A DNA stretch of 64,000 nucleotides from Chloroflexota bacterium. GTDB lineage: Bacteria; Chloroflexota; Dehalococcoidia; Lucifugimonadales; UBA3495. Of the stretch, positions 12,023 through 48,066 are shown one piece after another (the first letter of the stretch is position 1; every line of letters starts with the position of its first letter). Under the pieces are notes generated by a model that saw nothing but the letters and a program-made list of their open reading frames with translations, made no database searches and had not been told where the DNA came from. Position numbers and translations under genes: made by a program. The DNA lies in NCBI GenBank assembly GCA_027623675.1, contig JAQBVF010000002.1:64001-128000 (forward strand). The letters run 5' to 3'.

Positions 12023-12075
12023 TTCCGTTCTAGTTATTCCAGTGGCCAGTCCGGTCGTCCCAATATCAGCGGCGC

Positions 12076-12813: not shown

Positions 12814-12918
12814 CAGGGCGGCCCGCCAAAGGTGCTCGCCCGTTTCTTTCTCTAAACCGCTGGCTGATTCGTTAACTGAGTTTTGGACTCTGCCGTCTTT
12901 TATCTAGATCTTGCTCCG

Positions 12919-13272
12919 TTAGACCAACTCGATGATCGCCATCAGGGCGGAGTCACCGGTGCGCGGTCCCAATTTCATGATCCTGGTATAGCCGCCGGGC
13001 CGTTCGGCGTAGCGGACCGCCACGTCGTCAAACACTTTCTTTACCACTTTGGAGTTGGGCACCTGGGCCATGGCCAACCGGCGATGGTTCAGGTTGCCCT
13101 TTTTGCCGTGGGTGATCAGTTTCTCGGCCATCACCCTGGTCTCTTTGGCCTTGGCCAGGGTGGTGGTGATGCGTTCGTGGGTTATCAGTTCCACAACCAA
13201 ACCCCGCAGCAATGCGGTGCGTTGGTCGCGGTACCGGCTGAGTTTTCTACCGGCAATTCTGTGGGAGGCCAT
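12919..13272 (-). CDS. rplQ: 50S ribosomal protein L17
   Basis: [24 protein letters not shown]. Confidence 0.97.
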
Positions 13273-13274
13273 GG

Positions 13275-14426: not shown

Positions 14427-14433
14427 GGACAAA

Positions 14434-32474: not shown

Positions 32475-32891
32475 CTAGTCCCGGGGCTTGATCGCTCCGT
32501 ACTTGCTGCGGCCTCGCCGGCGGTCCGGCACACCCTCACAGTCGAGAGCGCTGCGGACTACGTGGTAACGGACACCCGGCAGGTCTTTAACACGACCGCC
32601 TCGAATCAGCACCACCGAGTGTTCTTGGAGGTTATGGCCTTCACCGCCGATGTATGCGGTGACTTCCACTCCGTTGGTCAAGCGGATCCTGGCGATCTTC
32701 CGAAGAGCTGAGTTCGGCTTCTTCGGAGTCATGGTGCGCACCTGGATGCAGACACCCCGCCTCTGCGGGCAACCGGGACCCCATTTCACTCTATTCGTGA
32801 GGGAGTTCTGGACCCAGTGCATCGCCGGAGCCTTCGTCTTTTTGTGGACGGGCTTTCGGCCTTTTCTTACTAACTGATTTACTGTCGGCAT
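32475..32891 (-). CDS. rpsL: 30S ribosomal protein S12
   Basis: [35 protein letters not shown]; start set at ATG 32891. Confidence 0.97.
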
Positions 32892-33066
32892 GGCGTTCCC
32901 CTCGCCGCAATGGGCGCGATATATAACTCTATACAATCGACCGTGGCATTGTCAACAGATTTTACTCGTGATTCGCCTGTGCTTCAACTCCCACGTACTC
33001 GGGGGAATCCAGACGTTTCACCCGGCCAATAAGACTCCGTAGACCCTGGATCCAGCCGGAATCTTC

Positions 33067-33095
33067 TTGACAAGCTAAGCCCCCAATCATAAAGT
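33067..33095 (+). promoter_or_regulatory. Sigma70-type promoter for cbiE-cobN
   Basis: TTGACA-17 bp-TAAAGT. Confidence 0.6.
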
Positions 33096-33240: not shown

Positions 33241-33933
33241 ATGACATCCCAAGATGGCGGCACACGGGTTACCATTATAGGCGTGGGTCCCGGCGACAAC
33301 GGATTCCTAACCCTGAAGGCAAAACAAGCGGTTGAGGAAGCCGACCTGGTGGCCGGTTTCGCGACGGTCTTGAACGTCGTCCGACCCTTCGTCAAGAATG
33401 CCGAACTCTGCCCCATGGCCTACCGCGACCAGGAAGAGGTTCTTGACTACGCCGTGGGAAAGGTGAAACAAGGCAAGAGCCTCGTCGTATGCGCCTGGGG
33501 AGACCTGAACGTGTCGGCCAAGGAGTTGCTAGACCGCGTGCGGCGGCGGGTGGACCACGTTGACCTGATCCCCGGCATCAGTTCGGTGCAGATCGCGCTG
33601 GTCCGTTCCGGCATATCCTTGGAGCATGCGGTCTTCGTCACGCTTCACGTTCGGGACGGCGCCGAATCGGCCTTGGAAGAATTGGTCCACTATATAAAGG
33701 AAGGCCGGCGGAACGTGGTCCTGCTGCCCCGACCCTACGACCTGATGCCGGCCGGTATCGCCGCTGGCGTTATCGAGGCTGGGATCTCCGGGGACCGCCA
33801 GATGACGGTCTTCCAACGCCTCACTCACGACGACGAGCAGTCTTGGAGCGGCAGCGTCAGCGAATGCGCCGCCATCACCTCCGATTTCAGCGATCTGTCG
33901 ATAATGGTTTTCCACAAGCCTGACTCGGACTAG
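33241..33933 (+). CDS. cbiE: Precorrin-6Y/cobalt-precorrin-7 C5-methyltransferase-like tetrapyrrole methylase
   Basis: IIGVGPGD, LTLKAKQAVEEADLVAG, GD motif, IPGISSVQ, TLH, QRLTHDDE; adjacent to cobN. Confidence 0.8.
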   Translation: MTSQDGGTRVTIIGVGPGDNGFLTLKAKQAVEEADLVAGFATVLNVVRPFVKNAELCPMAYRDQEEVLDYAVGKVKQGKSLVVCAWGDLNVSAKELLDRVRRRVDHVDLIPGISSVQIALVRSGISLEHAVFVTLHVRDGAESALEELVHYIKEGRRNVVLLPRPYDLMPAGIAAGVIEAGISGDRQMTVFQRLTHDDEQSWSGSVSECAAITSDFSDLSIMVFHKPDSD

Positions 33934-34088
33934 GCAGCATCAGGCACGGGCTTTCGCAAGCCCGATTCCGGTTAAAGTTAACCAGGCCTTCTAACCCACC
34001 GGTCCGCCCCCGCACGGGTTGGCGAGACCGGACAAGATATTTCACCGGCCTGCCTCGAAGGGGGAGGCTGGGAGGGACCGGTCCCAGT

Positions 34089-37000
34089 TTGATCCTTTTC
34101 GTCACCACTGCAGACACCGACCTGCTCACCGCTGGCCGGGCATTGGAGATTCTGCCGGCTGATTTTCCACAGGTAAAGGCGTTCAACCCGGCCACTCTGC
34201 CGGGGGAAGGCGAGCAAGACGCCATCCTGGCGGCCGCCGCGGAGGCCGACGTTGTTGTGCTGCGCCTGCTGGGCGGCAAACGGGCCATGCCCGAAAACTT
34301 CGACCCATTGGTCCGCCTCTGCCACGAGCGGGGCATTCCCCTCATCGCCTGTCCTGGCCATCAGGAATGGGACCAAGACCTGGTCACGGCCTGCACCGTT
34401 CCGCCCTCTGAGCTAGACGCCGTTTTCTCCTACCTGATTCGTGGCGGCGTGGCCAATTTCGAGAATCTTTTCCTCTTTTTAAGTGACTCCTACCTGGGCT
34501 CGGACTACGGCCACGAGGCCCCGGCGGAAGTCTCATGGGAAGGCATCTACCATCCCGACGAAGCCGACGGCATGTCAGCCCAGGATTTTGTGGTGCGCCG
34601 CTTCAAGCCCGGCCGGCCCAGCGTGGCGGTGCTGTTCTACCGCGCCCACTGGATGAGCGGCAACCTGCAGACGGTGGACGCACTGGTCCGGCGGCTTGAG
34701 GAACTGGAAACCAACGTGATGCCCGTCTATTCGTTCAGCCTGAAACACAATCCGGAGGGCGACGGGCAGGCCAACCGGACCTTCTCGGAGATCCTCTGCG
34801 ACGAGAATGGCGACGCCCGCGTCGACTGCATCATCAACACCATGGGCATGTCCATGACCGACCTGCACCAAGACGGCGCAACCTTCGCCGCCGGCCCCCA
34901 GGTCGACTATCTGGACAAGCTGAACGTCCCCATAATCCAGGGCATATTCAGCACCGGCAACGAGGCCGAATGGGAGGAGAGCTCCCTGGGTCTGGGCCCC
35001 ATAGACACCGCCATGAGTGTGGCCCTGCCCGAGTTCGACGGGCGGATCATCACCGTGCCAATCTCATTCAAAGAAGAGGTATCTTCGGAATCCGTTGGCC
35101 GCGATGGCAAGATGGACGCCCGGCTGCAGCGAAACCTGCCCCGGCCCGACCGCATCGACCTCCTGGCCCGGCTGTCCGCCAAATGGGCCTCGCTGCGGCT
35201 AAAGCCGAACGCTGACAAGCGCATCGCCATCATCCTCAGCAACTACCCGACCAAGGACGCCCGCGTCGGGAACGCGGTGGGACTGGACACCCCCGCTTCG
35301 GTCATCAACGTGCTAAACGCCATGGCCGCGGCCGGGTACACCGTGACCGACATCCCCGCCGACGGCGATGAACTGGTCCACCGGATAATCGAGCGGTGCA
35401 GCAACGACACCGACACGCTGACCGAAGAGCAACTCCGGCTGGCGGCGGGCCACGTTAGCTCCACCCAGTACAAAGAGTGGTTCCGCGGTTTCCCGCAAAC
35501 CGTCCAGAACGACATGGTTGAGGCCTGGGGCCAGCCGCCGGGGCAGGTATACCGCACCGGAGACAACCTGGCCATCGCCGGTATCGACTTGGGCAACGTG
35601 TTCGTCGGACTACAGCCGCCCCGAGGCTTCGGCGAGAACCCCATATCCGTGTACCACAGCCCGGACCTGGTCCCCACCCATCACTACATCGCCTATTACC
35701 GGTGGATGCGGGACGTTTTCAAAGCCGACGCGATGGTCCATGTGGGCAAGCACGGCACCCTGGAATGGCTGCCCGGAAAGGGGATCGGCCTGTCCGCTGC
35801 CTGCTACCCCGAGGTGGCCCTGGATGACGTGCCGCTGTTCTACCCGTTCATCATCAACAATCCCGGTGAGGGCGCCCAGGCCAAGCGGCGGGCCCACGCC
35901 ACCATCATCGACCACCTCATACCGGCCATGACCACCGCCGACAGTTACGGCGACATCGCCCGGCTGGAACAGTTGATGGACGAGCATTACCAGTGCCAGA
36001 CGTTGGACCCGGCCAAGCTGCCCTTGCTTGAGGGCCAGATCTGGGACATGGTGCGTCAGGCCGACCTGGACCGCGACCTGGGAGTGGACGAACATCCGGA
36101 GGACTTCGGCGACTTCATCTTGCACATCGACGGCTATCTCTGCGAACTGAAAGACGCCCAGATCAGGGACGGTCTCCACACCCTGGGCGAGGTGCCCCAA
36201 GACGAGCAGATGACCGGCCTGTTATCCTCCCTCACTCGCTTGGATACCGGAGGGATACCCAGCCTTAGACGCTCGCTGGCCGAGGCCATGGGCTTGGATT
36301 ACACCAGCCTGCTTGACGAACCGGCGCTGCCCGCCCCCGAGCCGGTCCCAGCGCCGCTGGCCGCCGGCGACGGCACGCCGGTCCGCACCCAAGGCGACCT
36401 GCTGGAAAGACTGGAAGAGCTGTCCCGCTCGGCTTACACCATGCTGGACGCCGGCGGGTTCAAAAGGCAGGACGTGGCCGGCATTGTCTTAAAGCTACTG
36501 GGAACCGAAGACGCCCAGTCCAGCCACGTGCTGAACTACGTGACCGACACCCTGCATCCGGCGCTGCTGCGGACCACCGACGAGATCGGCAATCTGCTGC
36601 GCGGCCTGGACGGTCAATTCGTCCCCGCCGGACCCAGCGGCGCACCGACCAGGGGCATGTCCAACATCCTGCCCACCGGCCGCAATTTCTATTCCGTCGA
36701 CCCCAAGACCATCCCATCGCCCACCGCCTGGGACATGGGCGTCGGCCTGGCCAACGCGCTGCTGCAGGTCTATCTGGAGGAAGAGGGCGGCTACCCCGAG
36801 ATGGTGGGGCTGGTCATCTGGGGCACGTCCGCCATGCGCACCCACGGCGACGACATCGCCCAGGTGTTCAGCCTTCTCGGCATCAAGCCGGTCTGGCAGG
36901 AAGAGAGCCGGCGCATCACCGGACTCGAGGTGATACCTCTGGCGGACCTGGGCCGTCCCCGGATCGACGTCACGGTTCGGATCAGCGGCTTCTTCCGGGA

Positions 37001-37913
37001 CGCCTTCCCCAACCTGATCGAGTTGATCGACCAGGCGGTGGAGCTGGTGGCCTCGTTGGACGAATCGCCGGAAGACAACATGGTGGTCAAACACCTGCGG
37101 GAGGACGCCGCCGCCAGGGAGTCCGGCGAGGAACAGTCGGCCGAGCCGACCGTGTCCCAGGGCAACCCCGCGCTGTACCGGATATTCGGCAGCAAGCCCG
37201 GCACCTATGGGGCCGGGATATTGGCCGCCATCGATGAACGCAACTGGGAGAGCGTTCAAGACCTGGCTGAGGTCTATACCGCCTGGGGCGGCTACGCCTA
37301 TACCCGCCAGGACTTCGGCGTTAACGCCCGGAACGAGTTCCGCCGCCGGTTCAGCCAGATCGTGGTTGCGGCCAAGAACCAGGACAACCGGGAGCACGAC
37401 ATCTTCGACAGCGACGACTACATGCAGTATCACGGCGGCATGATCGCCACCGTGAGGGCGCTGACCGGCAGCAACCCCCAGCAATTTTTCGGAGACAGTT
37501 CCGACCCCACCCGCGCCAGGGTTCGAAAGTTGGAGGAGGAAGCGCGCCGGGTCTTCCGCACCAGGGTGGTCAACCCCAAGTGGATCGACTCCATGAAGCG
37601 CCACGGCTACAAGGGCGCCTTCGAGCTGTCGGCCACCGTCGATTACATGTTCGGCTATGACGCCACTGCCCAGGTCATTGAGGACTGGATGTACGAGAAT
37701 GTCACCGAGTCCTACGTGCTGGACCCGGAGACCCAGGAGTTCTTCCAGCAGAGCAACCCCTGGGCGCTAAGAGACATTGTGGAGCGGCTGTTGGAGGCGA
37801 TAGAGCGCGGCATGTGGGAGAACCCGCCCGAGGACATGAAGGAAAAGCTTCAAAACATGTTCTTGGACCTGGAAGCCGATCTGGAAGCCCGCCAAGAGGG
37901 CCCGCAAAGCTAA
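34089..37913 (+). CDS. cobN: Cobaltochelatase large subunit
   Basis: 1274 aa; LPEFDGRI, NYPTKDARVGNAVGLDT, QPPRG, HVGKHGTLEWLPGK, GPSGAPTRG, LPTGRNFY, RPRIDVT, NQDNREHD, RVVNPKW. Confidence 0.95.
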   Translation: MILFVTTADTDLLTAGRALEILPADFPQVKAFNPATLPGEGEQDAILAAAAEADVVVLRLLGGKRAMPENFDPLVRLCHERGIPLIACPGHQEWDQDLVTACTVPPSELDAVFSYLIRGGVANFENLFLFLSDSYLGSDYGHEAPAEVSWEGIYHPDEADGMSAQDFVVRRFKPGRPSVAVLFYRAHWMSGNLQTVDALVRRLEELETNVMPVYSFSLKHNPEGDGQANRTFSEILCDENGDARVDCIINTMGMSMTDLHQDGATFAAGPQVDYLDKLNVPIIQGIFSTGNEAEWEESSLGLGPIDTAMSVALPEFDGRIITVPISFKEEVSSESVGRDGKMDARLQRNLPRPDRIDLLARLSAKWASLRLKPNADKRIAIILSNYPTKDARVGNAVGLDTPASVINVLNAMAAAGYTVTDIPADGDELVHRIIERCSNDTDTLTEEQLRLAAGHVSSTQYKEWFRGFPQTVQNDMVEAWGQPPGQVYRTGDNLAIAGIDLGNVFVGLQPPRGFGENPISVYHSPDLVPTHHYIAYYRWMRDVFKADAMVHVGKHGTLEWLPGKGIGLSAACYPEVALDDVPLFYPFIINNPGEGAQAKRRAHATIIDHLIPAMTTADSYGDIARLEQLMDEHYQCQTLDPAKLPLLEGQIWDMVRQADLDRDLGVDEHPEDFGDFILHIDGYLCELKDAQIRDGLHTLGEVPQDEQMTGLLSSLTRLDTGGIPSLRRSLAEAMGLDYTSLLDEPALPAPEPVPAPLAAGDGTPVRTQGDLLERLEELSRSAYTMLDAGGFKRQDVAGIVLKLLGTEDAQSSHVLNYVTDTLHPALLRTTDEIGNLLRGLDGQFVPAGPSGAPTRGMSNILPTGRNFYSVDPKTIPSPTAWDMGVGLANALLQVYLEEEGGYPEMVGLVIWGTSAMRTHGDDIAQVFSLLGIKPVWQEESRRITGLEVIPLADLGRPRIDVTVRISGFFRDAFPNLIELIDQAVELVASLDESPEDNMVVKHLREDAAARESGEEQSAEPTVSQGNPALYRIFGSKPGTYGAGILAAIDERNWESVQDLAEVYTAWGGYAYTRQDFGVNARNEFRRRFSQIVVAAKNQDNREHDIFDSDDYMQYHGGMIATVRALTGSNPQQFFGDSSDPTRARVRKLEEEARRVFRTRVVNPKWIDSMKRHGYKGAFELSATVDYMFGYDATAQVIEDWMYENVTESYVLDPETQEFFQQSNPWALRDIVERLLEAIERGMWENPPEDMKEKLQNMFLDLEADLEARQEGPQS

Positions 37914-37938
37914 ATCACAGATCTTCAGGAGGCCACCT

Positions 37939-38364
37939 GTGGAAATAACGATGGAACTACTCCGTGAACTGACCCAAGATGACAAGAAAACGTGGGTGAT
38001 CGGCGGCAGCAAGGTGTCCAGCGAGAATAGCTCCAAGGGCATCAAAGAGCCGGAGGTCTCGGGCAAATACGTCACGATCGAAGCGGACAATTGGCATTTT
38101 CACCTGGCCCTGGACGATGTTACCGGGATCCAGTTCGTCGATTCCGAGAGCCATGGGGACATGCACTCCTACTACGTCCGGTTTTCCGGCCCGGGATACG
38201 AGGACACGTTGGTCCGCAGCTATTTCCCCAATCCCAACCTGGACGACGACGAGAAGCGGACCGAGTTCCAGCCCGAAAAACTCAAGGCGTTCGAAGAGTT
38301 CCGGGACCGGTACGTGGGCCGCGAGGGCATCGTGTTCGTGACCAGGCCCCGGCAGGCCAGTTAG
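37939..38364 (+). CDS. HutX/ChuX (HemS-fold)-like putative tetrapyrrole-binding protein
   Basis: GTG after AGGAGG; pattern HFHL..DD.TGIQFV...SYYVRF...R.YF...Q...F..F resembles the ChuX/HutX split-barrel family (by eye). Confidence 0.6.
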   Translation: MEITMELLRELTQDDKKTWVIGGSKVSSENSSKGIKEPEVSGKYVTIEADNWHFHLALDDVTGIQFVDSESHGDMHSYYVRFSGPGYEDTLVRSYFPNPNLDDDEKRTEFQPEKLKAFEEFRDRYVGREGIVFVTRPRQAS

Positions 38365-38449
38365 CCGGCTTTCCCTATAATAATCTAAGATTTCCTGCGA
38401 TCTCGATCTTTCAGTTTTGATCCGGAACTGGGATTGGGCCGTATAGCTA

Positions 38450-38478
38450 TTGACCACGCTGTCCGCGAGGAATAACAT
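38450..38478 (+). promoter_or_regulatory. Promoter of B12-riboswitch unit 1
   Basis: TTGACC-17 bp-TAACAT, about 45 nt before the aptamer. Confidence 0.65.
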
Positions 38479-38524
38479 CAACTGGCTTACCACGAAGCCA
38501 AAGCGCTTAACAATCTAAAACATG

Positions 38525-38703
38525 TCCATAGGTGGTCCCGATTATTCGGGACTGAAAAGGGAAGCCGGTGAGATACCGGCGCGGTCGCGCCACTGTAACT
38601 GGTGTCAGCCACCCCACTAACGAATCGCCACTGACCCGATAACTCGGGATGGGAAGGCGGGGGTACTTGACCTAAGCCAGGAGCCAGGAGACCTGCCTAT
38701 GGA
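38525..38703 (+). promoter_or_regulatory. Cobalamin riboswitch 1
   Basis: AAAAGGGAAGCCGGTG..CCGGCGCGGTC.CGCCACTGTAA..GCCACTG..GGGAAGG..GAGCCAGGAGACCTGCC; P1 TCCATAGGTGG/CTGCCTATGGA. Confidence 0.95.
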
Positions 38704-38755
38704 TTGACTTGATGCACTTCGCAATTGAGGGTGTGAGTCTTACCGATTCTCTATG

Positions 38756-38784
38756 ACCTGACTTCCGAAGTCGGGTTTTTTTTT
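38756..38784 (+). terminator. Riboswitch 1 terminator
   Basis: ACCTGACTT-ccg-AAGTCGGGT followed by a long T-run. Confidence 0.85.
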
Positions 38785-38814
38785 GCTCAAGATCAAACGT
38801 CTGGAGATTTCAAC

Positions 38815-40398
38815 ATGCACTGGCGTTCAACGGCCTTTGGGTTCATCTTTGGCACTTTGCTCCTGGCTATCTTGGCGTGTGGCGGTCCTGCCAGCGCCAC
38901 GCCCACCGGTTCGGTTGTAGCCGAATCGAGCGGAGCGCCTACTGGTTCCGCAGAGCAACGCGTGTTGAAAGTAGCCCTGACTTTCCTGGACGAGCCGCCA
39001 GACCCTTATCAGACCGGTTGGCTGGCGGTCCCCACCGGTCTGGCCGAAACTTTGTTCCGATTGAGCGACGACCTTAAGCCGGAGCCTTGGCTGGCCACCG
39101 GCGCGGTACAGACCGCTCCGGAAACCTGGGAGATCACCCTGCGCGAGGGCGTCACCTTCCACAACGGCGTGTCGATGGACGCCGCCAAGGTCAAAGGCTC
39201 GCTGGACCTGGCGCTGCAACGGCGGCCCGGCACCAGGGTCCTTCTGGACATTGCCCGGACCGAGGTCAAAGACCCGTACACCGTGCTCATCACCACCAAC
39301 TCGCCCAACCCGACCCTGCCCGGCCTGTTGACCAACCAGAACACGAGCATCGCCGACCCCGGCACGGTGCCGGCATCGCCGGAAGATTCGGCGGAAAGCG
39401 CTGCGATGACCGGTCCCTACAAGCTGGTGTCCTTCAAAGCCGATCGGGAGATGATTGTCGAAGCGCACACCGGTTATTGGCAGGGCCGACCGGCGTTGGA
39501 CCGGATCGAATACGTTGCCTTTAACCAGAGCGACACCCGCCTCATCGCCCTCCAAAGCGGCGACGTCGACATATCGGTCAACCTCTCCCCACAGGGAGCG
39601 GTGACCGCCGAGAAAGATTCGTCACTGGAAGTTTTGATTGCTCCACCGTCGGGCATGCTGTTCATGTTTGTGAACCATGAAAGTCCGGCGATGCGGGACC
39701 CGCTGGTGCGCCGGGCCGTCGCCATGGCGGTGGACCGGAATGCCATGGCAACCGGCGTGGCGGACGGGCGCGCCGTCCCTGCGGAAAGCATGTTCCCGCC
39801 CGGGTTCATCTCCTGCCAGAATCCGGCTGGGTTTTCCTACAACCCGGAAGCGGCCCGTCAACTGCTTGCCGATGCCGGCTATCAGGATGAAAACGGCGAC
39901 GGCATCGTGGAAAAAGACGGGAAAGCCTTGGAGTTGGTCCTACAGACCTATCCCGAGCAGCCACTCTTGCCGCCGATGCTCGAAGCATACCAATCGATGT
40001 TGAAGGACATCGGCGTTGGCGCCAAGGTCCAAATCGTGGAATGGACCCTGGCCAGCCAGGGCGGTTACGACCTGTTCGGCTACAGCAACGGCACCATCAC
40101 CACGGGCGACCCCGGGTGGGCGCTCAACCGCCAGTTCCTGACCGGCGGCGACGAGAACCGGGGCAATTTCAGCAACGCCACGGTGGACGAACTCATCGGT
40201 AAGTTGTCCGGCGCGGCCGGTCCGGCCCAGCGGGAGCAGATCGCCTGCGAAGCCCTGAAAGCAGGGAATGATGAAGTTGCCCTGATACCGGTGATGTTCC
40301 CCAACCGGCTCTACGGGATATCGGACTCCGTCGATTGGCCGTCGGGTCCGCACGCCGTCCAACTCTACTTCATAGACTACAGAATCGGACTGAAATAG
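38815..40398 (+). CDS. ABC transporter substrate-binding lipoprotein, family 5 (NikA/CntA/DppA-like)
   Basis: Lipobox LAILAC; ETLFRL, PWLA, LREGVTFHNG, TGPYKL, ALQSGDVD, VRRAVAMAVDR, ARQLLADAGY. Confidence 0.88.
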   Translation: MHWRSTAFGFIFGTLLLAILACGGPASATPTGSVVAESSGAPTGSAEQRVLKVALTFLDEPPDPYQTGWLAVPTGLAETLFRLSDDLKPEPWLATGAVQTAPETWEITLREGVTFHNGVSMDAAKVKGSLDLALQRRPGTRVLLDIARTEVKDPYTVLITTNSPNPTLPGLLTNQNTSIADPGTVPASPEDSAESAAMTGPYKLVSFKADREMIVEAHTGYWQGRPALDRIEYVAFNQSDTRLIALQSGDVDISVNLSPQGAVTAEKDSSLEVLIAPPSGMLFMFVNHESPAMRDPLVRRAVAMAVDRNAMATGVADGRAVPAESMFPPGFISCQNPAGFSYNPEAARQLLADAGYQDENGDGIVEKDGKALELVLQTYPEQPLLPPMLEAYQSMLKDIGVGAKVQIVEWTLASQGGYDLFGYSNGTITTGDPGWALNRQFLTGGDENRGNFSNATVDELIGKLSGAAGPAQREQIACEALKAGNDEVALIPVMFPNRLYGISDSVDWPSGPHAVQLYFIDYRIGLK

Positions 40399-40399
40399 C

Positions 40400-41347
40400 T
40401 TGGGCAATCACCTAACGCGACGCCTGATAACACTTCCATTTCTCTTGGTGGGCATCTCAATCATCAGCTTTTTGCTGTTGAATTTCGCCCCCGGCGACGC
40501 CGCGGAGATCAGGCTGCTCCGTCAGAACGGGGGCGTAGCGCCTTCCGAGGAAGCGGTGATGGAATTGCGGCAAGAATTGGGTTTAAACGACGCCCTGCCG
40601 ATCCGCTATGCCAGATGGGTATCTTCCGCGGTGCGCGGCGACCTGGGTGAGTCCTACCGCACCGGTGCTTCGATCGCCTCCGAATTGACCCGGCGATTGC
40701 CAGCGACCCTCCTGCTTGCAGCCACCGCTTTAGCCTTGGCGGTGGCTGCAAGCATCCCCCTCGGCGTATTGGCGGCGGTGAGGCGGGGCTCTTGGGTGGA
40801 TACCATATGCCGCATACTCGCCCTCGTAGGGGCGGCAGTGCCCAGCTACGTGATGGCGCCGGCCTTGATGCTGCTATTCGCCGTGAAGTTGGACTGGCTG
40901 CCGGCCATCGGCTACGGGTCCTTCAGCGCCCTTGTGCTGCCGGCCCTGGCGCTGTCCTTCGGAACCATGGCCCAGTTGATGCGCCTGACGCGGGCCAGCG
41001 TGCTAGAGGTGCTGGACCAAGACTATATGCGGACGGCCCGCGCGAAAGGCCTGACCGAGACGGTGGTGGTTTGGCGTCACGGCTTGAAGAACGCCCTGCT
41101 GCCGGTGGTCACGGTCCTGGGGACCAATACGGGGTATCTTCTGGGCGGCGCCGTGATCATCGAGACCATCTTCGGCTGGCCGGGTGTCGGTCAGTTCGTC
41201 GTCACCGGAATCTCCCAACGGGACTACCCCGTGGTACAAGGGTTCGTGCTGTACATGGCTGTGATCTTCCTGCTGGTCAACCTGGCGGTAGATATCTCAT
41301 ACCGCTGGCTGGACCCGAGGCTTCATTTTGGCCGGCGGCATCACTAA
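40400..41347 (+). CDS. ABC transporter permease (NikB/DppB-like)
   Basis: GDLGESY, RLPATL, DYMRTARAKGL, ETIFGWPGVG, RDYPVVQG, LDPR; TTG start. Confidence 0.9.
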   Translation: MGNHLTRRLITLPFLLVGISIISFLLLNFAPGDAAEIRLLRQNGGVAPSEEAVMELRQELGLNDALPIRYARWVSSAVRGDLGESYRTGASIASELTRRLPATLLLAATALALAVAASIPLGVLAAVRRGSWVDTICRILALVGAAVPSYVMAPALMLLFAVKLDWLPAIGYGSFSALVLPALALSFGTMAQLMRLTRASVLEVLDQDYMRTARAKGLTETVVVWRHGLKNALLPVVTVLGTNTGYLLGGAVIIETIFGWPGVGQFVVTGISQRDYPVVQGFVLYMAVIFLLVNLAVDISYRWLDPRLHFGRRHH

Positions 41348-41348
41348 C

Positions 41349-42317
41349 ATGAAGACTGACGCTAAGCCTGTAAGAACGCCTCTTCGCCTTCGAGAACCGG
41401 CTCTTGCCCCAAGATTGCCCCGACCTGGAGACGTCACCATACAGAACACGATCCAACAACCGGTTTCCCAGCGACGGGCTTCACGAAAGACGGTGTTCCA
41501 TCACTTGCGCCACGACCCCGGAGCCGTTGCTGGTTTCGTGATCGTGGCCGCAGCTATCCTGGCGGCGCTGTTTGCCCCGTTGCTCCCCCTGCCAAGCCCG
41601 GTGGAAGTGGACCTGCAGAACCGGTTGCTTTCTCCCTCCGGCGCTTTCCCGTTGGGCACCGACCACCTGGGCCGGGATGAGTTGAGCCGCCTGGTCTTTG
41701 GCGCACGGACCACGTTGATGATGTCCGGCGCATCGTTGGCCATCATCATGGTCATCGCAACCGTGGTCGGTTCCCTGGCCGGCTACTACGGCGGCTGGCT
41801 CGACACCGGCTTGATGATGCTGGTGGACCTGCTGCTGGCATTTCCGGCGCTGATCCTGGGGGTGGCCGTGGCCGGTATCTTGGGGCCAAGCCTGGTCAAC
41901 GTGATGATTGCCGTCTCAGTGGTCTGGTGGGCCAGCCACGCCCGAGTCATCCGCGCCATGGTCTTGTCGGCAAGGCACCGGGAATATGTTGTGGCCGCCA
42001 GGGCTATCGGGGCTAGCGACGGCCGAATCATCGTCTTCCACATCGCCCGTAACATCATGGGGCCGTTCGTCGTATTGGCGACGCTGGACATCGGCTGGAT
42101 AATCTTGGGGATAGCCGGTTTGAGTTTCCTGGGACTGGGCGCCCAGCCGCCCACGCCCGAATGGGGGGCCATGCTCAACGACTCGCGCTCGTACATGCAG
42201 ACCGCGCCATCGTTGTTGCTCGCCCCCGGAATCGCGATCTTTCTATTGGTGCTGGGCTTCAATCTTTTGGGCGACGGGCTGCGCGACATGCTTGACCCGA
42301 CGACCTACCGGCTTTAG
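41349..42317 (+). CDS. ABC transporter permease (NikC/DppC-like)
   Basis: LGTDHLGRD, EYVVAARAIGAS, LSFLGLGAQPPTPEWG, FNLLGDGLRD; ATG 41349 chosen as start. Confidence 0.9.
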   Translation: MKTDAKPVRTPLRLREPALAPRLPRPGDVTIQNTIQQPVSQRRASRKTVFHHLRHDPGAVAGFVIVAAAILAALFAPLLPLPSPVEVDLQNRLLSPSGAFPLGTDHLGRDELSRLVFGARTTLMMSGASLAIIMVIATVVGSLAGYYGGWLDTGLMMLVDLLLAFPALILGVAVAGILGPSLVNVMIAVSVVWWASHARVIRAMVLSARHREYVVAARAIGASDGRIIVFHIARNIMGPFVVLATLDIGWIILGIAGLSFLGLGAQPPTPEWGAMLNDSRSYMQTAPSLLLAPGIAIFLLVLGFNLLGDGLRDMLDPTTYRL

Positions 42318-42375
42318 AGGACATAGCCGCGCCGGAGGGACGATAGATTCGGCCTGGCGTGCCGGGAATCACCTA

Positions 42376-42404
42376 TTGACCCTATCGGTCAAAAAGGCTA
42401 TTAT
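42376..42404 (+). promoter_or_regulatory. Promoter of B12-riboswitch unit 2
   Basis: TTGACC-17 bp-TATTAT; the -35 is one arm of TTGACC-N5-GGTCAA. Confidence 0.65.
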
Positions 42405-42455
42405 TCTGCTCGAAGAGCAACCGAAAGATTGTCTCTTCGTTTAACAACTTAGACG

Positions 42456-42640
42456 AGCTGCTTGGTGGTCCCGTTCATTCGGGACTGAAAAGGGAAGCCG
42501 GTGCGAGTCCGGCGCGGTCCCGCCACTGTAACTGGTAACCCCCTCTCCCACCGGGAGTGGAGTCACTGTTCCGAGTAATTGGAACGGGAAGGCGAAGGGG
42601 GGGGTAGAAAAGCCAGGAGCCAGGAGACCTGCCACCAGCT
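42456..42640 (+). promoter_or_regulatory. Cobalamin riboswitch 2
   Basis: AAAAGGGAAGCCGGTGCGAGTCCGGCGCGGTCCCGCCACTGTAA..GTCACTG..GGGAAGG..GAGCCAGGAGACCTGCC. Confidence 0.95.
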
Positions 42641-42690
42641 TGACTTGGAAGCCTTCGTGGATTGGGGGTATGAGTCAGTATGACGATTCC

Positions 42691-42718
42691 GCCCGACTCC
42701 GCCAGTCGGGCATTTTTT
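42691..42718 (+). terminator. Riboswitch 2 terminator
   Basis: GCCCGACT-ccgcc-AGTCGGGC followed by ATTTTTT. Confidence 0.8.
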
Positions 42719-42903
42719 ATGCCCTGACCGGATGGTGGTTGGGCAAAGAACAGAAAATTGAATAGCTAGGTTGTTCGTGGCTTTAGCCTGCTCGGCTATA
42801 ATCCTGGTGGAAAACTGAGTTGACCGGAGCGGCGGGTCCTTTATCCAGCCGCGGAAAAAGTCAGACATAAATTCGAGACATAGAGAAATCTGAGGGGGAA
42901 ATC

Positions 42904-43101
42904 ATGGTACAGGTGTTTCGGCAGTCCATAGCAAACAGAGAGTCTTCCCGATGGCTTCCCGCGGTGTTGGCGGCAACCGTCGCCTTGTATTTCATCGGCT
43001 ACGTCGACGGCACGGCCCAGGGAGCGTTCTTGGGCGGCAACATGGCGGTTGTCCATGAGGTCTTCCACCACGCCCGCCACGTTGCCTTCATGTGCCACTA
43101 G
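42904..43101 (+). CDS. cbtB: Cobalt transporter subunit CbtB
   Basis: One TM helix then HEVFHHARHVAFMCH (CbtB H..H..RH....CH terminus); behind a B12 riboswitch. Confidence 0.88.
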   Translation: MVQVFRQSIANRESSRWLPAVLAATVALYFIGYVDGTAQGAFLGGNMAVVHEVFHHARHVAFMCH

Positions 43102-43393
43102 GCTAGGAGCCCGCTCCTAGCAGGCAACTCTAAGACCCGGCTTAAGAGAAAAATACCGCAGTCTCCGCTACGGAGACTGCGGTTCTAATCAACCCGCCTC
43201 CTCCCCAGCCCCGCGCTTCAACTTAGCCGTTTCTCACCCGGCGCTGTATGGCCTCGCACTGCAGTTTCGCGTATCTCATCGCCCCCAAAACGATGTCCCG
43301 CCGCGGCTTCGCGATCCACGGACAGGGCTTCTAAACAGATTTTCTCCAAACGGACTTTCATGGACTTTCAACGCATGTCAGGGAGGGGCAATC

Positions 43394-44164
43394 ATGCCTA
43401 GAATATTGATCATTGGGCTGGTGGCGGGCCTATTCGCCGGCCTGCTGGTGGGCGGGTTTCACAACCTGTTCACCGTGCCCGTCATCGAACGGGCCATAGA
43501 TTTCGAAGAAGCACAGTCTGCATCGGCGAATCCCAATGCCCCGGAAGAAGACCCGCTGGTCTCCCTGGGGGCGCAACGGTGGGGAATGGCGGCCGGGACC
43601 GGCATCTACGGCGCCATCCTTGGCGTGGTCTTCGCCGCCGCCGTCACCGTACTCCGCAAGGTAGTCCCAGATTGGAAGCCCTTGGCCATCGCCGTCACCG
43701 CGGCCGCCTTGGGATTCTGGGCCTTGTCTTTGTTCCCGTTCATCCGGTACCCGCTGAATCCGCCCGGTGTGGGCGAGTCCGACACCCTCACCTACCGGCA
43801 GGGTCTGCAGACCATGTTCATGATTCTGTCGGTACTAGGCGTCGGGGTATTGCTGTTTGGCCTGCGTGAGATCAACGGTCGGTTCCAAGAAACTAGCAAG
43901 CGGGTCAAAATGTACGGCGCTGCCGGGCTGGCCTACGTTGTCTTCGCGGTAATCATGTACTTCGCCCACCCGGCCAATCCAGACCCGGTGGAGATGCCCA
44001 TCGACCTCCTGGAACTGTTCCGCACGCTGACGATGGTCGGGCAATTCCTGACCTGGGCCATGATGGCCGGACTGGCAACCGCCGGCATGTATTGGTATCA
44101 ACGCCGCGATGCGAAGGCGGGCAACCGCTTCGATCCGGTGACCGGAGCGCCCGTAAGCCTGTGA
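43394..44164 (+). CDS. cbtA: Cobalt transporter subunit CbtA
   Basis: GLVAGLFAG, PVIERAIDFEE, PFIRYPLNPPGVG...TLTYRQ, P.DLL..FR; multiple TM helices. Confidence 0.88.
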   Translation: MPRILIIGLVAGLFAGLLVGGFHNLFTVPVIERAIDFEEAQSASANPNAPEEDPLVSLGAQRWGMAAGTGIYGAILGVVFAAAVTVLRKVVPDWKPLAIAVTAAALGFWALSLFPFIRYPLNPPGVGESDTLTYRQGLQTMFMILSVLGVGVLLFGLREINGRFQETSKRVKMYGAAGLAYVVFAVIMYFAHPANPDPVEMPIDLLELFRTLTMVGQFLTWAMMAGLATAGMYWYQRRDAKAGNRFDPVTGAPVSL

Positions 44165-46335
44165 CCAGATCAAGCACGACAACCACCAGTGAGAACCCCG
44201 GAAATAAAAATCCCGGCAATAAAAACCCCGGCAATAAAAACCCCGGCGGAAACGCCGGCAGAATCCCAGAGTCCCGGTTTCCGTTCACGGCCATCGTAGG
44301 TCAAACGGCCATGAAACGAGCGCTGCTCCTGAACGCCGTCAACCCGAAGATCGGCGGCGTTCTGGTGCGCGGCAAGAAGGGCACCGCCAAGTCCACGGCG
44401 GTCCGTTCTCTGGCTGCGCTATTGCCCGAGGTAACCGTGGTCCAGGGCTGCCCCTACAACTGCAGTCCGGAAGAACGCCAGGGGCTGTGCAACCGCTGTG
44501 AGCCGATCGACACCGACGCCGCAACCGTCGTTCGCCAGATCCCGATCGTGGACCTGCCGGTTGGCGCGACGGAGGACAGGCTGGTGGGGTCTCTGGACAT
44601 CGAGGAGGCCATCAAAACGGGAAACCGGGTCTTTGAGCCGGGCCTCATCGCAGCGACGCACCGGGGCATTCTCTACATCGACGAAGTTAACCTGCTCAAC
44701 GACCACCTGGTGGACATTCTGCTGGACGCCGCCGCCATGGGCCGCAACTATGTGGAGCGGGAGGGTATCTCGGTGACCCATCGTTCGGAGTTTATCCTGG
44801 TGGGCACGATGAACCCGGAAGAAGGCGACCTCCGGCCCCAACTGCTGGACCGCTTCGGACTGGCGGTTGAAGTCGACGGGCGGTTCTCCCCCGAGGAACG
44901 CCAAGAGGTGGTGAAGCGCCGCATCGCCTACGAGGCCGACCCCCAGGCGTTCATGGCCCGGTGGCAGCAGCCGGAGCAGGAGGAACGGCAGCGGGTGCTG
45001 CGGAGCCAGCAGTTGCTGCCCCAGGTGGTTGTCAGCGATGACATCTTGTCCCTGATCACATCCATCTGCGCCGAATACGATATCGACGGCATGCGCGGCG
45101 ATATCGTCATGTACAAGACAGCCAGCACCATCGCCGCCTACGAGCAGCGGACGGAAGTCAACGCCGAGGACGTGCGCGAGGCCGCCAACCTGGCCCTGCT
45201 TCACCGCCAGCGCCGGCAGCCCTTCCAGCAGCCCAATCTGGAGACCAGCCAGCTCGACTCAATGGTGGACGACTTTCAGAGTCAGGACCGCCAACGCGAA
45301 TCGCAAGACCAGGCCGGGGATAACGATCAAGGAGAGGGCGATTCCGAGCCCTCGGATTTAAGACCGGAAGATTTAGAGTCACCGGACCCCGAATCACCTG
45401 AGCCCCAGGACCCCGACGCCGAACCGGACAATCCGGGATTCGGGCTGCCCCAGAATGAGCAGTTCGAAGTGGGCGACCCCTATGCGGTGCGGTCTCTCGA
45501 CCTGAAGCCTCCAGACCAACGCTCCCGCCGCGCCTCGGGCCGCCGTAACGTCACCATCAGCGACTCCTCCGCCGGGCGGTACGTCCGCTCCCGCCAACCG
45601 GAGGGCAAGGCGACCGGGCTGGCCTTGGACGCCACCCTGCGCGCCGCCGCACCGCACCAACTGGGCCGCCGGTCATCGTCCCAATCAGCCAACGCCGTGC
45701 TGGTCGAGCCCCAGGATATCCGCGATAAGGTCAGGGAGAACAAGGCGGGCAGCCTGGTGCTGTTCGTGGTTGATGCCAGCGGCTCCATGGGCGCTCAGCG
45801 GCGCATGGTGGCGGTCAAGGGGGCGATCATGTCCCTCTTGCTGGACGCCTACCAGCGGCGCGACCGGGTGGGACTGATCTCATTTCGCGGGACACAGTCC
45901 AGTCTGCTGCTGCCGCCCACCAACAGCGTCGACCTGGCCCAGGTCCACCTGAAAGACATGCCCACGGGAGGCCGAACTCCGCTCAGCGCCGGTCTGTTCA
46001 AAGCGTTGGAGATCGTCGAGACGGAACGCATCAAGGACCGGGACGTCATGCCCCTGCTGGTGCTGCTGTCCGATGGCCGGGGCAACGTGGCCCAAGGCCA
46101 AGACTCGCCCTTGGACGAAGCGTCGGTGGCGGCTGGGATCATCGGCGAGGGCAAGATCCCGTCGGTGGTGGTGGACACCGAGTCCGGGTTCATCAAGCTG
46201 GGCATGATACAGCCGATAGCCACGGCCATGGGCGCCCAATACCTGAAGCTGGAAGACCTGAGGGCCGACAACCTGGCGGAGGCGGTGCGGCTCAACATGC
46301 CCATTATCGGCGAGGCCCCGCCCCACGTTAACTAG
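44161..46335 (+). CDS. Fused ChlI/ChlD-type (AAA+ plus vWA) chelatase subunit, likely CobN partner
   Basis: GTG overlaps the cbtA stop (GTGA); FPFTAIVGQ, GKKGTAKST, TEDRLVGSLD, YIDEVNLL, GTMNPEEG, LLDRFG; acidic/Pro linker; vWA MIDAS DASGSM, TGGRTPL, LSDGRGN. Confidence 0.92.
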   Translation: MTRSSTTTTSENPGNKNPGNKNPGNKNPGGNAGRIPESRFPFTAIVGQTAMKRALLLNAVNPKIGGVLVRGKKGTAKSTAVRSLAALLPEVTVVQGCPYNCSPEERQGLCNRCEPIDTDAATVVRQIPIVDLPVGATEDRLVGSLDIEEAIKTGNRVFEPGLIAATHRGILYIDEVNLLNDHLVDILLDAAAMGRNYVEREGISVTHRSEFILVGTMNPEEGDLRPQLLDRFGLAVEVDGRFSPEERQEVVKRRIAYEADPQAFMARWQQPEQEERQRVLRSQQLLPQVVVSDDILSLITSICAEYDIDGMRGDIVMYKTASTIAAYEQRTEVNAEDVREAANLALLHRQRRQPFQQPNLETSQLDSMVDDFQSQDRQRESQDQAGDNDQGEGDSEPSDLRPEDLESPDPESPEPQDPDAEPDNPGFGLPQNEQFEVGDPYAVRSLDLKPPDQRSRRASGRRNVTISDSSAGRYVRSRQPEGKATGLALDATLRAAAPHQLGRRSSSQSANAVLVEPQDIRDKVRENKAGSLVLFVVDASGSMGAQRRMVAVKGAIMSLLLDAYQRRDRVGLISFRGTQSSLLLPPTNSVDLAQVHLKDMPTGGRTPLSAGLFKALEIVETERIKDRDVMPLLVLLSDGRGNVAQGQDSPLDEASVAAGIIGEGKIPSVVVDTESGFIKLGMIQPIATAMGAQYLKLEDLRADNLAEAVRLNMPIIGEAPPHVN
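44194..44253 (+). repeat. 15-bp tandem repeat encoding (NPGNK)n
   Basis: AACCCCGGAAATAAA AATCCCGGCAATAAA AACCCCGGCAATAAA AACCCCGGCGGAAAC. Confidence 0.9.
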
Positions 46336-46458: not shown

Positions 46459-46539
46459 CGACTGTGGCCCGATTACCGGCCACTATCCCTTTTTTACTTA
46501 ATGCGGCTGCGCCGCCCCGCCACCCCAGGAGGTACCCGT

Positions 46540-48066
46540 TTGGCCCGCAACATGCTCTATGCCGACATGGACAAGATGCTTTCTCTGTCCAAGCGCCGGG
46601 GATTCATCTTTCAAAGCTCGGAGATCTATGGGGGCCTGGGTTCCACCTGGGACTACGGCCCCTTGGGCGTGGAGCTGAAACGCAATGTCAAAGAGGCCTG
46701 GTGGCAGGCCGTGATCGCCCAGCGCGACGACATGGTGGGCCTGGACGCCGCCATCCTGATGCATCCCAAGACCTGGGTCGCCAGCGGCCACGTGGAGAAC
46801 TTCTCCGACCCCTTGGTTGAATGCGGAAATTGTCGGCATCGGTTCCGACTTGACCATCTAACTTATGGCCACGCCTGGCTCGAGAACGGCGCCTCTGTAG
46901 AATTGAGTTTAGACGGAGCGTCAAATGACGACGTTGAGAAAGCGTTAAGAGAAAGAGCCGGGAGGATTGGTTCACCGATCTCAATCTCCAGGGAACTTGT
47001 AATATTGCCAGTGGTAGGTGGTTCACGAGCTGATCCAGTCACTAGCGTTCCGTGCCCGATATGCGAACAACGCGAACTGACCCCGCCGCGCCGGTTCAAC
47101 CTGATGTTCAAGACCTTCATGGGGCCGGTGGAAGACACGGCCAACGAGGTGTTCCTGCGACCGGAGACGGCCCAGGGCATCTTCGTCAATTTCAAGAACG
47201 TTTTGGACTCGACCCGCAAGAAGCTGCCCTTCGGCATCGGCCAGATCGGCAAGTCATTCCGGAACGAGATCACCCCCGGCAACTTCACTTTTAGAACCAG
47301 AGAGTTCGAGCAGATGGAAGCCGAGTTCTTCGTTAAGCCGGGCGAAGACGTGGAATGGCTGGACCGGTGGGTCCAACACCGCTTCCAGTGGTACATCGGC
47401 CTGGGCATTCGGAAGGAAAACCTGCGTCTGCGCGAGCATGGTCCCGATGAACTGGCCCACTACGCCAAGGCCTGTTACGACATCGAATACCGCTTTCCCT
47501 GGGGCTGGGCCGAACTGGAGGGCATCGCCAACCGCGCCGACTTCGACCTGCGGCAACACCAAGACGCCAGCGGGCAGGACATGACCTACTTCGACGATGC
47601 GGCGGCCGAGGGCGAGGAGCCTCGCTACCTCCCCTACGTCATCGAGCCGTCGGGCGGCGTTGACCGGGCCACCTTGGCCTTCTGGCTGGACGCCTATGAC
47701 GAAGAACCCGACGGCCCGATTGAAAAGGGAGCCGTGAGGGTGGTCTCCCACATCCACCGGGACCTGGCGCCCATCACCGTGGCGGCGCTGCCCCTGAGCC
47801 GTAACGAGAAGCTGCTGCCCACCGCCCGCCGGGTCTACGACACGCTCCGCAAGCACTTCCGGACGCAGTACGACGACGCCCAGAGCATCGGCCGCCGCTA
47901 CCGGCGCCAGGACGAGATCGGCACGCCCTACTGCGTGACCATCGATTTCGACACCATCGACGACGGCCAGGTGACCATCCGGGACCGGGACTCGATGCAC
48001 CAGGCCAGGGTCCCCATCTCCCAGTTGGTGGACATCCTGAAAGACAAGATCGAACACGCCTGGTAG
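46540..48066 (+). CDS. glyQS: Glycine--tRNA ligase, homodimeric (alpha2) type
   Basis: TTG after AGGAGG; SEIYGG, DYGPLG, LRPETAQG, GKSFRNEITP, FRTREFEQME, LAHY, ELEGIANR, YVIEPS, IGRRYRRQDEIGTP. Confidence 0.96.
   Translation: MARNMLYADMDKMLSLSKRRGFIFQSSEIYGGLGSTWDYGPLGVELKRNVKEAWWQAVIAQRDDMVGLDAAILMHPKTWVASGHVENFSDPLVECGNCRHRFRLDHLTYGHAWLENGASVELSLDGASNDDVEKALRERAGRIGSPISISRELVILPVVGGSRADPVTSVPCPICEQRELTPPRRFNLMFKTFMGPVEDTANEVFLRPETAQGIFVNFKNVLDSTRKKLPFGIGQIGKSFRNEITPGNFTFRTREFEQMEAEFFVKPGEDVEWLDRWVQHRFQWYIGLGIRKENLRLREHGPDELAHYAKACYDIEYRFPWGWAELEGIANRADFDLRQHQDASGQDMTYFDDAAAEGEEPRYLPYVIEPSGGVDRATLAFWLDAYDEEPDGPIEKGAVRVVSHIHRDLAPITVAALPLSRNEKLLPTARRVYDTLRKHFRTQYDDAQSIGRRYRRQDEIGTPYCVTIDFDTIDDGQVTIRDRDSMHQARVPISQLVDILKDKIEHAW

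Follow-up and report, generated by a model that had tools for sequence, protein, structure and literature searches.

A cobN island with a ChuX-fold gene as the probable cobalt-supply and cobalt-insertion arm of cobalamin synthesis in a Chloroflexota bacterium

The island analysed here occupies positions 33241..46335 of a 64,000-nucleotide stretch of DNA, referred to as the window, from a Chloroflexota bacterium of the class Dehalococcoidia (GenBank assembly GCA_027623675.1, contig JAQBVF010000002.1, positions 64,001 to 128,000). It carries cbiE, the class I cobaltochelatase gene cobN, a gene for a 141-aa protein of the HemS/ChuX/HutX fold, two sets of importer genes, each behind a cobalamin riboswitch, and a ChlI/ChlD-type motor gene. 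We consider it probable that this island serves a de novo cobalamin pathway as the arm that supplies cobalt and inserts it at the expense of ATP, and that it is not an autonomous scavenging module. The kind of system is already known, having been predicted in 2003, and is found here in a lineage-specific form; its less ordinary parts are the ChuX-fold gene tied to cobN and the coexistence of CobN with an early-insertion pathway. A first-pass annotation of the window had proposed that it might serve scavenging or repair and not de novo synthesis, and this proposal was not sustained: the pathway is encoded elsewhere in the genome, its only cbiE lies in the island, CobN and CbiC co-occur in relatives, and the importers are of metal type.

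The window comes from contig C2; the assembly comprises 48 contigs with a total of 3.07 Mb and is 91.4% complete. Its genes were typed by translating the open reading frames (ORFs) and searching Pfam, NCBIfam (with curated cut-offs) and Rfam, and the inventory of the cobalamin pathway was drawn up by searching the entire assembly for protein families and annotating the matches.

Cobalamin genes inside and outside the island

The island begins with cbiE (33241..33933, + strand), encoding the precorrin-6Y / cobalt-precorrin-7 C5-methyltransferase subunit (TIGR02467 123.2 bits against a cut-off of 92.9; PF00590 98.9 bits). The genome held seven TP_methylase matches, which were typed as CbiL, CbiF, CbiH, CobA-HemD, a second CobI/CbiL, RsmI and the island CbiE; therefore, the island cbiE is the only one found, and its partner cbiT lies on contig C47. 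This contig carries a row comprising hemA, cbiC, a two-domain cbiX, cbiD (393.7 bits against a cut-off of 348), cbiT, cbiL, cbiF, cbiG and cbiH. Contig C10 carries cobB/cbiA, cobO, cobT, cobS, cbiB and the threonine-phosphate decarboxylase gene cobD, contig C35 a cobC-like phosphatase gene, cobQ and cobU, and contig C29 a fused ahbA-ahbB, a CysG-N-like gene, hemC, cobA-hemD, hemB and hemL. As judged from these family matches, the ring-building, amidation and nucleotide-loop pathway is nearly complete in the genome. On contig C2 itself no CbiC, CobD/CbiB, CobS or GATase_3 (CobB/CobQ) match was obtained and the sole TP_methylase match was the island cbiE, so that the block itself is without ring-building genes. 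The statement of the first-pass annotation that such genes are lacking thus holds for the block and for its contig, but not for the genome, which carries the pathway on C47, C10, C35 and C29.

No CbiJ/CobK (precorrin-6 reductase) was found in the genome by PF02571 or TIGR00715, nor by PF02571 in any of 21 relatives, and as a control it was found in only 2 of 14 named genomes; this blank may be a sensitivity gap or a true non-orthologous replacement. The best candidate for CobG reached 198.9 bits against a cut-off of 234.8 (198.2 bits in direct comparison), but the same protein scored 517.9 bits as a ferredoxin-nitrite reductase, and its gene neighbours are an MFS transporter and a molybdopterin oxidoreductase. 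Among the named control genomes, those of Synechococcus, Methanocaldococcus, Haloferax and Methanosarcina matched CbiC, CbiX, CbiG_N and the CobN/ChlH family. Therefore, the mixture of a CobN-family protein with an early-insertion pathway is not rare, although ChlH may explain the cyanobacterial match.

Two C20 methyltransferases of the CobI/CbiL type are encoded in the genome, at L001:5322-6071 (C47) and L003:7570-8298 (C36), with 243.9 and 221.1 bits to TIGR01467, respectively; the second is solitary and far from cob genes. In addition, L002:5644-7620 (C29) encodes a fused AhbA-AhbB sirohaem decarboxylase and a CysG-N-like dehydrogenase/ferrochelatase domain, next to hemC, cobA-hemD, hemB and hemL, and haem is probably made via sirohaem, in competition with B12 synthesis for sirohydrochlorin.

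Conservation of the cobN neighbourhood

A search with the 141-aa protein revealed 151 stretches encoding a relative in a species-level genome collection. The best 80 of these 151 were used for the analysis of synteny, and the window proteins were placed on the 80 loci by tblastn. Among the 74 loci with at least 4 kb of upstream sequence, a full cobN was present within about 2.3 kb upstream of the ChuX-like gene in 71, the distance between the two genes being below 300 nt in 64 and between 300 and 2300 nt in 7 more. In 70 of these 74 loci cobN is itself preceded by cbiE. Where the cobN ORF is complete (70 loci), the median spacing between it and the ChuX-like gene was 63 nt, and 62 of these loci had 200 nt or less. 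The inserts found between the two genes were a transposase gene (L017, L032) and, in L033, a gene for a Cu/Zn superoxide dismutase; the transposase genes (L017:8068-9855 and L032:8897-9675) are of the IS-type DDE kind, and both cobN and the ChuX-like gene are intact at these loci. The three loci without a full cobN were L038 and, with remnants of 5-6%, L053 and L056. The synteny check across Dehalococcoidia that the first-pass annotation had recommended therefore gave a strong result, with cobN before the ChuX-like gene at 71/74 loci. That annotation had also held that its proposal would fall if a complete aerobic pathway were found elsewhere and the HutX-like gene did not accompany cobN in relatives. 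A ring pathway is indeed encoded elsewhere, but it is of the early-insertion and not of the aerobic type, and the HutX-like gene does co-occur with cobN.

What follows the ChuX-like gene is more variable. At the 63 loci with at least 7 kb downstream, the slot was occupied by cbtBA and chlD in 43, by a Nik-type set and chlD in 9 and by both importer sets in 2, while 3 loci had chlD and neither importer and 6 had neither importer and no chlD. As the cbtBA and Nik-type sets are interchangeable in one slot, a shared job in cobalt supply is indicated. No nikD or nikE was found between nikC and chlD in the relatives with the Nik cassette. Two of the three loci with chlD only carry a BtuF-type binding protein and an ABC ATPase, together with a FecCD permease in L006. 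Such a BtuF-type salvage set is absent from the window; it occupies the same slot in L006, L031 and L021, and its cargo would be either cobalt, as for CbtJKL, or a corrinoid. In L006, the closest relative, the region 10562-14812 encodes a 287-aa protein that weakly matches CbiX (21.7 bits) and a thioredoxin-like [2Fe-2S] domain, followed by the BtuF-type, FecCD and ABC ATPase genes and then by chlD.

The co-occurrence of whole pathways was also analysed. In the 21 large genomes that were reached via island loci, CbiC, CbiX and CbiG_N were each present in 20, and the exception (G160, with locus L053) has only a 6% remnant of cobN. A set of 40 relatives comprised 24 genomes of the window's family and 16 of other families of its order. 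Within the family, CobN and CbiC were each found in 23/24 genomes and the 141-aa protein in 20/24, the two mismatches being metagenome-assembled genomes (MAGs) that are 86 and 78% complete; in the other families, full CobN and CbiC were each found in 0/16 and a more distant paralog of the 141-aa protein in 5/16. CobN and CbiC have thus been gained and lost together in these relatives, and a full cobN without the ring pathway was seen in one 86%-complete MAG only among the genomes examined. Hence no examined genome has the island as a substitute for the ring pathway, which is the opposite of what a stand-alone scavenging function would predict.

Riboswitches were called in the relatives with an nhmmer model built from 11 Rfam-confirmed copies and applied to 61 loci. 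A B12 riboswitch was present in 59 of them and absent from 2; 37 loci had it solely upstream of cbiE, 16 solely after the ChuX-like gene (the arrangement of the window) and 6 at both positions, so that in 43/61 loci the cbiE-cobN-ChuX-like genes have such a riboswitch upstream of them.

Proteins and riboswitches of the island

The whole island is on the + strand, within the interval from rpsL (32475-32936, - strand) on its left flank to the GlyRS gene (46501-48066) on its right, and all the parts that the first-pass annotation had listed for this interval were recovered in their places. cobN (34089..37913, +) encodes a class I cobaltochelatase large subunit (TIGR02257 1276 bits against 822) and is present as a single copy in the genome. 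Its closest solved chain is Mycobacterium tuberculosis CobN (7c6o, 1103 bits), followed at a distance by ChlH (511 bits) and by HmuS (9d26, 356 bits); by sequence, it is a true CobN. The haem dechelatase HmuS of Bacteroidota, which is CobN-like, and the window protein have the CobN/ChlH domain family in common, but HmuS is a far more distant match than CobN. According to an extract of PMC13227078, HmuS is membrane-anchored and encoded in a haem-uptake operon, whereas the CobN of the window stands with cobalt importers and B12 genes.

The motor gene (44092..46335, +; 747 aa) encodes a ChlI-like AAA+ part, an acidic linker and a VWA part of the ChlD type, and scored 817 bits against the 779 of TIGR02442. 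Its N-terminal part matches ChlI (6l8d, 339 bits) and its C-terminal part BchD (2x31, 85 bits); the Pfam matches are PF01078, AAA_lid_2 and VWA_2. A Walker A (GKKGTAKST), a Walker B (ILYIDEV) and a MIDAS-like motif (DASGS) were identified in the translation, and given that they stand in one gene, a single polypeptide may serve as both the ChlI-like and the ChlD-type subunit. Both chelatase components passed their curated cut-offs, as the first-pass annotation had anticipated, and what it called a "fused ChlI/ChlD" corresponds to a single gene of the TIGR02442 type, which is already known. A programmed frameshift of the fs-chlD kind that would yield a small subunit was considered and rejected, since only three X_XXY_YYZ sites were found (codons 44, 49 and 176) and none in codons 177-747 or near the AAA/linker border. 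At its 5' end the ORF overlaps with the last part of cbtA and encodes (44190-44260 of the window) a tandem NPGNK repeat, which precedes the part that matches any chelatase model; that part begins at residue 63. The true start of this ORF is probably downstream of 44092.

ChlI/ChlD were proposed as CobN partners by Rodionov in 2003, as cited in PMC9227772. The B12-regulated sets of cobN and chlI/chlD with CbtAB attributed to the same author in extracts of PMC9227772 and PMC2667541 are like the island in their CobN and ChlD-type proteins, for which the cut-offs were passed here, in cbtBA and in the B12 riboswitch. The island differs from them in having one ChlI-like/ChlD-type gene, with no separate chlI and no fs-chlD frameshift site, in its early-insertion pathway partners, and in the conserved ChuX-fold gene attached to cobN.

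This last gene (37939..38364, +) starts with GTG 25 nt past the cobN stop. In Pfam its 141-aa product matched DUF7676 alone (33.7 bits), with no PF06228 (ChuX_HutX) match even at E<=10. An AlphaFold model built from 38 sequences had a pLDDT of 90.7 and a pTM of 0.87. A fold search against PDB representatives, independent of Foldseek, gave 3na2 (Z 14.9, root mean square deviation [rmsd] 3.0, 129 aligned residues), 3fm2 (Z 11.6), 2ph0 (Z 10.6), HutX 5exv (Z 9.8, rmsd 2.8, 114 aligned) and ChuS 4cdp (Z 8.4) as its top five, the next row being at Z 6.0. Foldseek was concordant (E 2.5e-7 to 9.5e-4) and added ChuX, PhuS and HemS. The function of 3na2 is unassigned and 3fm2 is annotated as "putative haem-binding"; the family profile of the 141-aa protein matches both by sequence (E 3e-3 and 1.5e-4, respectively). 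In addition, a precomputed PF06228 assignment exists for some of the orthologues with 66-69% identity, and paralogs in other Dehalococcoidia reach 30.9-32.8 bits with this model against a cut-off of 25. The label HutX/ChuX-like given by the first-pass annotation is therefore correct at the level of predicted fold and distant homology, by the fold and by the profile matches to 3fm2 and 3na2, with Pfam giving DUF7676 only. In fold the protein is alike to the ChuX/HutX/HemS-ChuS-PhuS family and to its cousins 3na2 (LFE_1968-like) and 3fm2 (Ava_4353). It differs from the ChuX/HutX family in its position after cobN, in the B12 riboswitch upstream of the operon in most relatives and in the lack of a PF06228 match of its own.

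The residues invariant in the 38 sequences include D50, N51, W52, H53, H55, H72, Y79, R81, Y95 and F96, and the W-H-x-H motif is kept in distant relatives and in 3na2. The family is narrow, with 104 cluster representatives at E<=1e-3 among 1.84 billion and 13 at E<=1e-30; its 90% clusters hold 711 proteins, some of them named "putative heme iron utilization protein" by JGI. The family profile matched 4 of 150 other genomes sampled from the class, none of them beside cobN. A scan with PF22684 over 300 Chloroflexota gave nothing informative, and this model misses the window's own 141-aa protein. It must be noted that no haem-uptake or haem-degradation genes were found near the 141-aa gene, which is accompanied by cobN, a B12 riboswitch and genes for cobalt importers. 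No pairing of ChuX, HutX or DUF7676 with CobN was present among the literature matches listed, and the term DUF7676 was absent there. A complex prediction for partial CobN (residues 420-1274) and the 141-aa protein, with alignments as input, scored 0.00 against a mark of 0.32 and is uninformative on binding.

Two full-length cobalamin riboswitches lie further downstream. The first (38513..38714, +; RF00174 114.7 bits, full model 1-189) has a promoter-like site on its 5' side (38450..38478, +; consensus scan 9/12, pattern match only) and a terminator-like hairpin on its 3' side (38755..38777, +), consisting of a 10-pair stem followed by the T-run TTTTTTTGCT, which is likely its expression platform. 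The second (42445..42650, +; RF00174 118.7 bits) has the same flanks, namely a promoter-like site (42376..42404, +; 10/12) and a hairpin (42691..42711, +) with an 8-pair stem, 6 of them GC pairs, followed by the T-run ATTTTTTATG. A further promoter-like site precedes cbiE (33067..33095, +; 10/12 matches in the consensus scan, pattern match only). The pattern of promoter, riboswitch and hairpin appears to fit transcription attenuation and three transcription units, the operon structure being predicted from these elements. When the entire genome was scanned with nhmmer, no more than three copies of the cobalamin riboswitch were obtained. The third is on contig C13 (L094:12474-13563, minus strand; RF00174 92.9 bits), directly 5' of bluB (TIGR02476 257.9 bits against a cut-off of 150), and no riboswitch was found at the C47, C10, C35 or C29 clusters. 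Therefore, lower-ligand synthesis is the only other B12-gated step found in the genome; this step requires oxygen.

Riboswitch 1 precedes the genes for a NikA-like family-5 substrate-binding protein of the SBP_bac_5 family (38815..40398, +; PF00496 266 bits; NF045468 Opp5A_nikA 298 bits, below the cut-off of 600), a NikB-like permease (40400..41347, +; NF045470, nickel ABC permease, 363 bits against 350) and a NikC-like permease (41328..42317, +; NF045474 303.6 bits against 300; TIGR02790 322 bits). The set resembles the NikABCDE / Opp-type Ni/Co importers in that a cobalamin riboswitch precedes the genes for a family-5 binding protein and for permeases like NikB and NikC, and it differs from NikABCDE in lacking nikD and nikE and in its binding protein, which falls below the NikA cut-offs (298 against 600). 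No ABC_tran ORF was found in the island, where nikC ends at 42317 and riboswitch 2 starts at 42445, the rest of the genome not having been searched for ATPases. The B12-riboswitched family-5 importer of the first-pass annotation is thus present in its riboswitch, binding protein and nickel-type permeases, and incomplete in that the island has no ATPase gene. We infer that the cargo of this system is cobalt; in an extract of PMC2667541, Nik-type transporters are described behind B12 riboswitches and CbtAB is given as a predicted cobalt transporter. The urease cluster (urease alpha, UreG) on contig C5:16500-21500 (L110) implies that the cell also needs nickel, and the only Nik-type importer seen lies behind a B12 riboswitch despite that need.

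Riboswitch 2 is followed after 254 nt by a cbtB-like ORF for a small membrane protein of 65 aa with a His-rich C-terminus (42904..43101, +). Its match to PF09489 has only E=0.93, and it gave tblastn matches of 37-89% identity upstream of cbtA in relatives. cbtA itself (43394..44164, +), a predicted cobalt transporter subunit, scored 150.1 bits with PF09490. With the two full-length RF00174 copies, cbtBA and the Nik-type set, the earlier suggestion of cobalt import under B12 riboswitches is upheld. The 290-nt gap between cbtB and cbtA (43101-43394) contains a perfect 13-pair, GC-rich palindromic hairpin (43155-43183) that scored as terminator-like on the minus strand. Apart from the island, a SAM riboswitch (RF00162, 70.9 bits) lies at 3783-3916 of the window, on the + strand.

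Function of the island

According to the model that we favour, the island would be expressed as three units: cbiE-cobN-chuX-like; riboswitch, Nik-type binding protein and two permeases; and riboswitch, cbtB-cbtA and motor gene. Scarcity of adenosylcobalamin would lead to read-through at both riboswitches, and read-through to production of the cobalt importers and of the AAA+/VWA motor. The motor would power CobN, by which Co(II) would be put into a corrin or tetrapyrrole intermediate, and CbiE would perform its usual methylation step with the CbiT encoded elsewhere. The 141-aa protein, to judge from its modelled fold, would most likely bind the tetrapyrrole substrate or product and pass it to or from CobN, which is in line with the earlier suggestion that it could carry a tetrapyrrole. 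We infer the assignments of both the CobN substrate and the ligand of the ChuX-like protein. GUN4 is a porphyrin-binding activator of the Mg-chelatase ChlH. The role proposed for the 141-aa protein would be analogous, that of a small tetrapyrrole-binder serving the large subunit of a class I chelatase, although the two are unrelated in fold and family. According to an extract of PMC13227078, ChuX shuttles tetrapyrrole between enzymes.

Several observations weigh against this interpretation. The ring pathway is of the early-insertion type, with CbiX inside the cbi cluster, a full-length CbiG and CbiD, in this genome and in 20/21 relatives, and with such ring genes the textbook substrate of CobN should not arise. 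CobG was not found in the genome (CobZ not having been searched for), nor was CobF, as which none of the seven TP_methylase matches typed. No clear CobW was found in the genome, the sole strong PF02492 match being UreG of the urease cluster and two further matches being weak (29 and 20 bits). No separate small subunit was detected either, the only strong TIGR02030 match in the genome being the motor gene's own N-terminal part, with CobS of the CobST type not searched for. In the window, the cbiE-cobN-chuX-like unit has no riboswitch, and the Nik-type set has no ATPase gene in the island and a binding protein below the NikA cut-offs. The ChuX-like ORF stays open in G160, where cobN is a remnant and CbiC, CbiX and CbiG are missing. 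Lastly, among paralogs at 42-51% identity, adjacency to cobN or a riboswitch was found in 0/4, and 16 loci (L092 and L095-L109; 1 and 15 from two queries) gave no cobN or riboswitch match, so that the link to cobN is confined to a single group of orthologues that are at least 60% identical. At L056 the ChuX-like ORF is also open despite a cobN remnant, and at L038 the ChuX-like gene stands beside a luciferase-like monooxygenase gene, with no cobN. The ChuX-like protein may have a use beyond CobN, or L053, L056 and L038 may be recent losses. As for CobN, it may act early, act on a side product or re-metallate.

The explanation given by the first-pass annotation was that cobalt and a metal-free or damaged corrinoid are imported, handed over by the HutX-like carrier and re-metallated by CobN/ChlD independently of the de novo route. 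CobN does seem unneeded in a pathway with CbiX, CbiG and CbiD, which makes another substrate conceivable, and a protein with the predicted ChuX fold would be a plausible carrier. At least three relatives (L006, L031 and L021) have, moreover, a riboswitch-gated BtuF-type importer (Peripla_BP_2) that is accompanied by FecCD, by an ABC ATPase or by both. Such importers need not carry corrinoids, since the BtuF-like CbtJKL, under an adenosylcobalamin riboswitch, imports Co(II) according to an extract of PMC7689651. We regard this explanation as improbable, given that a full cobN is accompanied by the ring pathway in the genomes examined, bar one 86%-complete MAG, that the only cbiE of the pathway is in the island, and that the importers of the window are of the Ni/Co type and exchangeable with cbtBA. 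A related scheme, in which CobN/ChlD would run in reverse like HmuS and strip cobalt from imported corrinoids delivered by the ChuX-like protein, seems highly implausible to us. One CobN relative is a proven dechelatase, as stated in an extract of PMC12583661, but the CobN of the window scored 1103 bits to 7c6o and only 356 to HmuS 9d26, it tracks the biosynthetic pathway, and the cobalt importers of the island indicate that free cobalt is the supply.

The presence of both chelatase types in 20/21 relatives raises the alternative that CobN/ChlD is a second, ATP-driven, high-affinity early chelatase acting on sirohydrochlorin or a compound near it and switched on at low B12 and low cobalt, with CbiX serving at higher cobalt or mainly making sirohaem for the Ahb haem route. 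The AhbA-AhbB and CysG-N-like genes, as part of a sirohaem-dependent haem route competing for sirohydrochlorin, the two CobI/CbiL paralogs and the motor gene and cobalt importers behind the same riboswitches would all suit it. To our knowledge, no class I chelatase uses sirohydrochlorin, and this counts against the alternative, as do the position of cbiX inside the cbi cluster, beside cbiC, and the closeness of CobN to that of M. tuberculosis, which is filed with the late route. Taken as a whole, it is unlikely. We hold an equally low opinion of the idea that the 141-aa protein, instead of carrying a tetrapyrrole, is a Co(II) metallochaperone that replaces the missing CobW through its invariant His residues. 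In its favour, the search of the genome gave no CobW-type gene, and D50, N51, W52, H53, H55 and H72 are invariant in the 38 sequences, with W-H-x-H extending to distant relatives and 3na2. However, no metal-chaperone fold appeared near the top of the fold searches, and the HemS/ChuS/ChuX/HutX fold family binds haem and linear tetrapyrroles, according to an extract of PMC13227078.

In comparison with these alternatives, a role of the island in cobalt supply and insertion for de novo synthesis remains the interpretation that we prefer. We are doubtful about, and put forward only tentatively, a bolder proposal, namely that a SAR202-related family keeps a class I chelatase with its own HemS/ChuX-fold corrinoid chaperone alongside a complete early-insertion pathway. 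If it were true, there would be a cobalt-insertion step outside the textbook scheme, either an ATP-driven early insertion where oceanic cobalt is very low or one that re-metallates corrinoids without cobalt or stripped of their metal, and the ChuX-like protein would be the first dedicated CobN substrate carrier described.

The deep ocean, in which both cobalt and B12 are in short supply, harbours SAR202 and related Dehalococcoidia in abundance. If the island serves de novo synthesis, as we propose, these bacteria would be B12 producers in which the only B12 feedback found is directed at the supply of cobalt, at the motor of the chelatase and at bluB. That a protein of a tetrapyrrole-carrier fold is conserved as the companion of CobN bears on what CobN-type chelatases do where the ring pathway inserts cobalt early, and if the small protein is a carrier or an activator, it could aid engineered B12 production.

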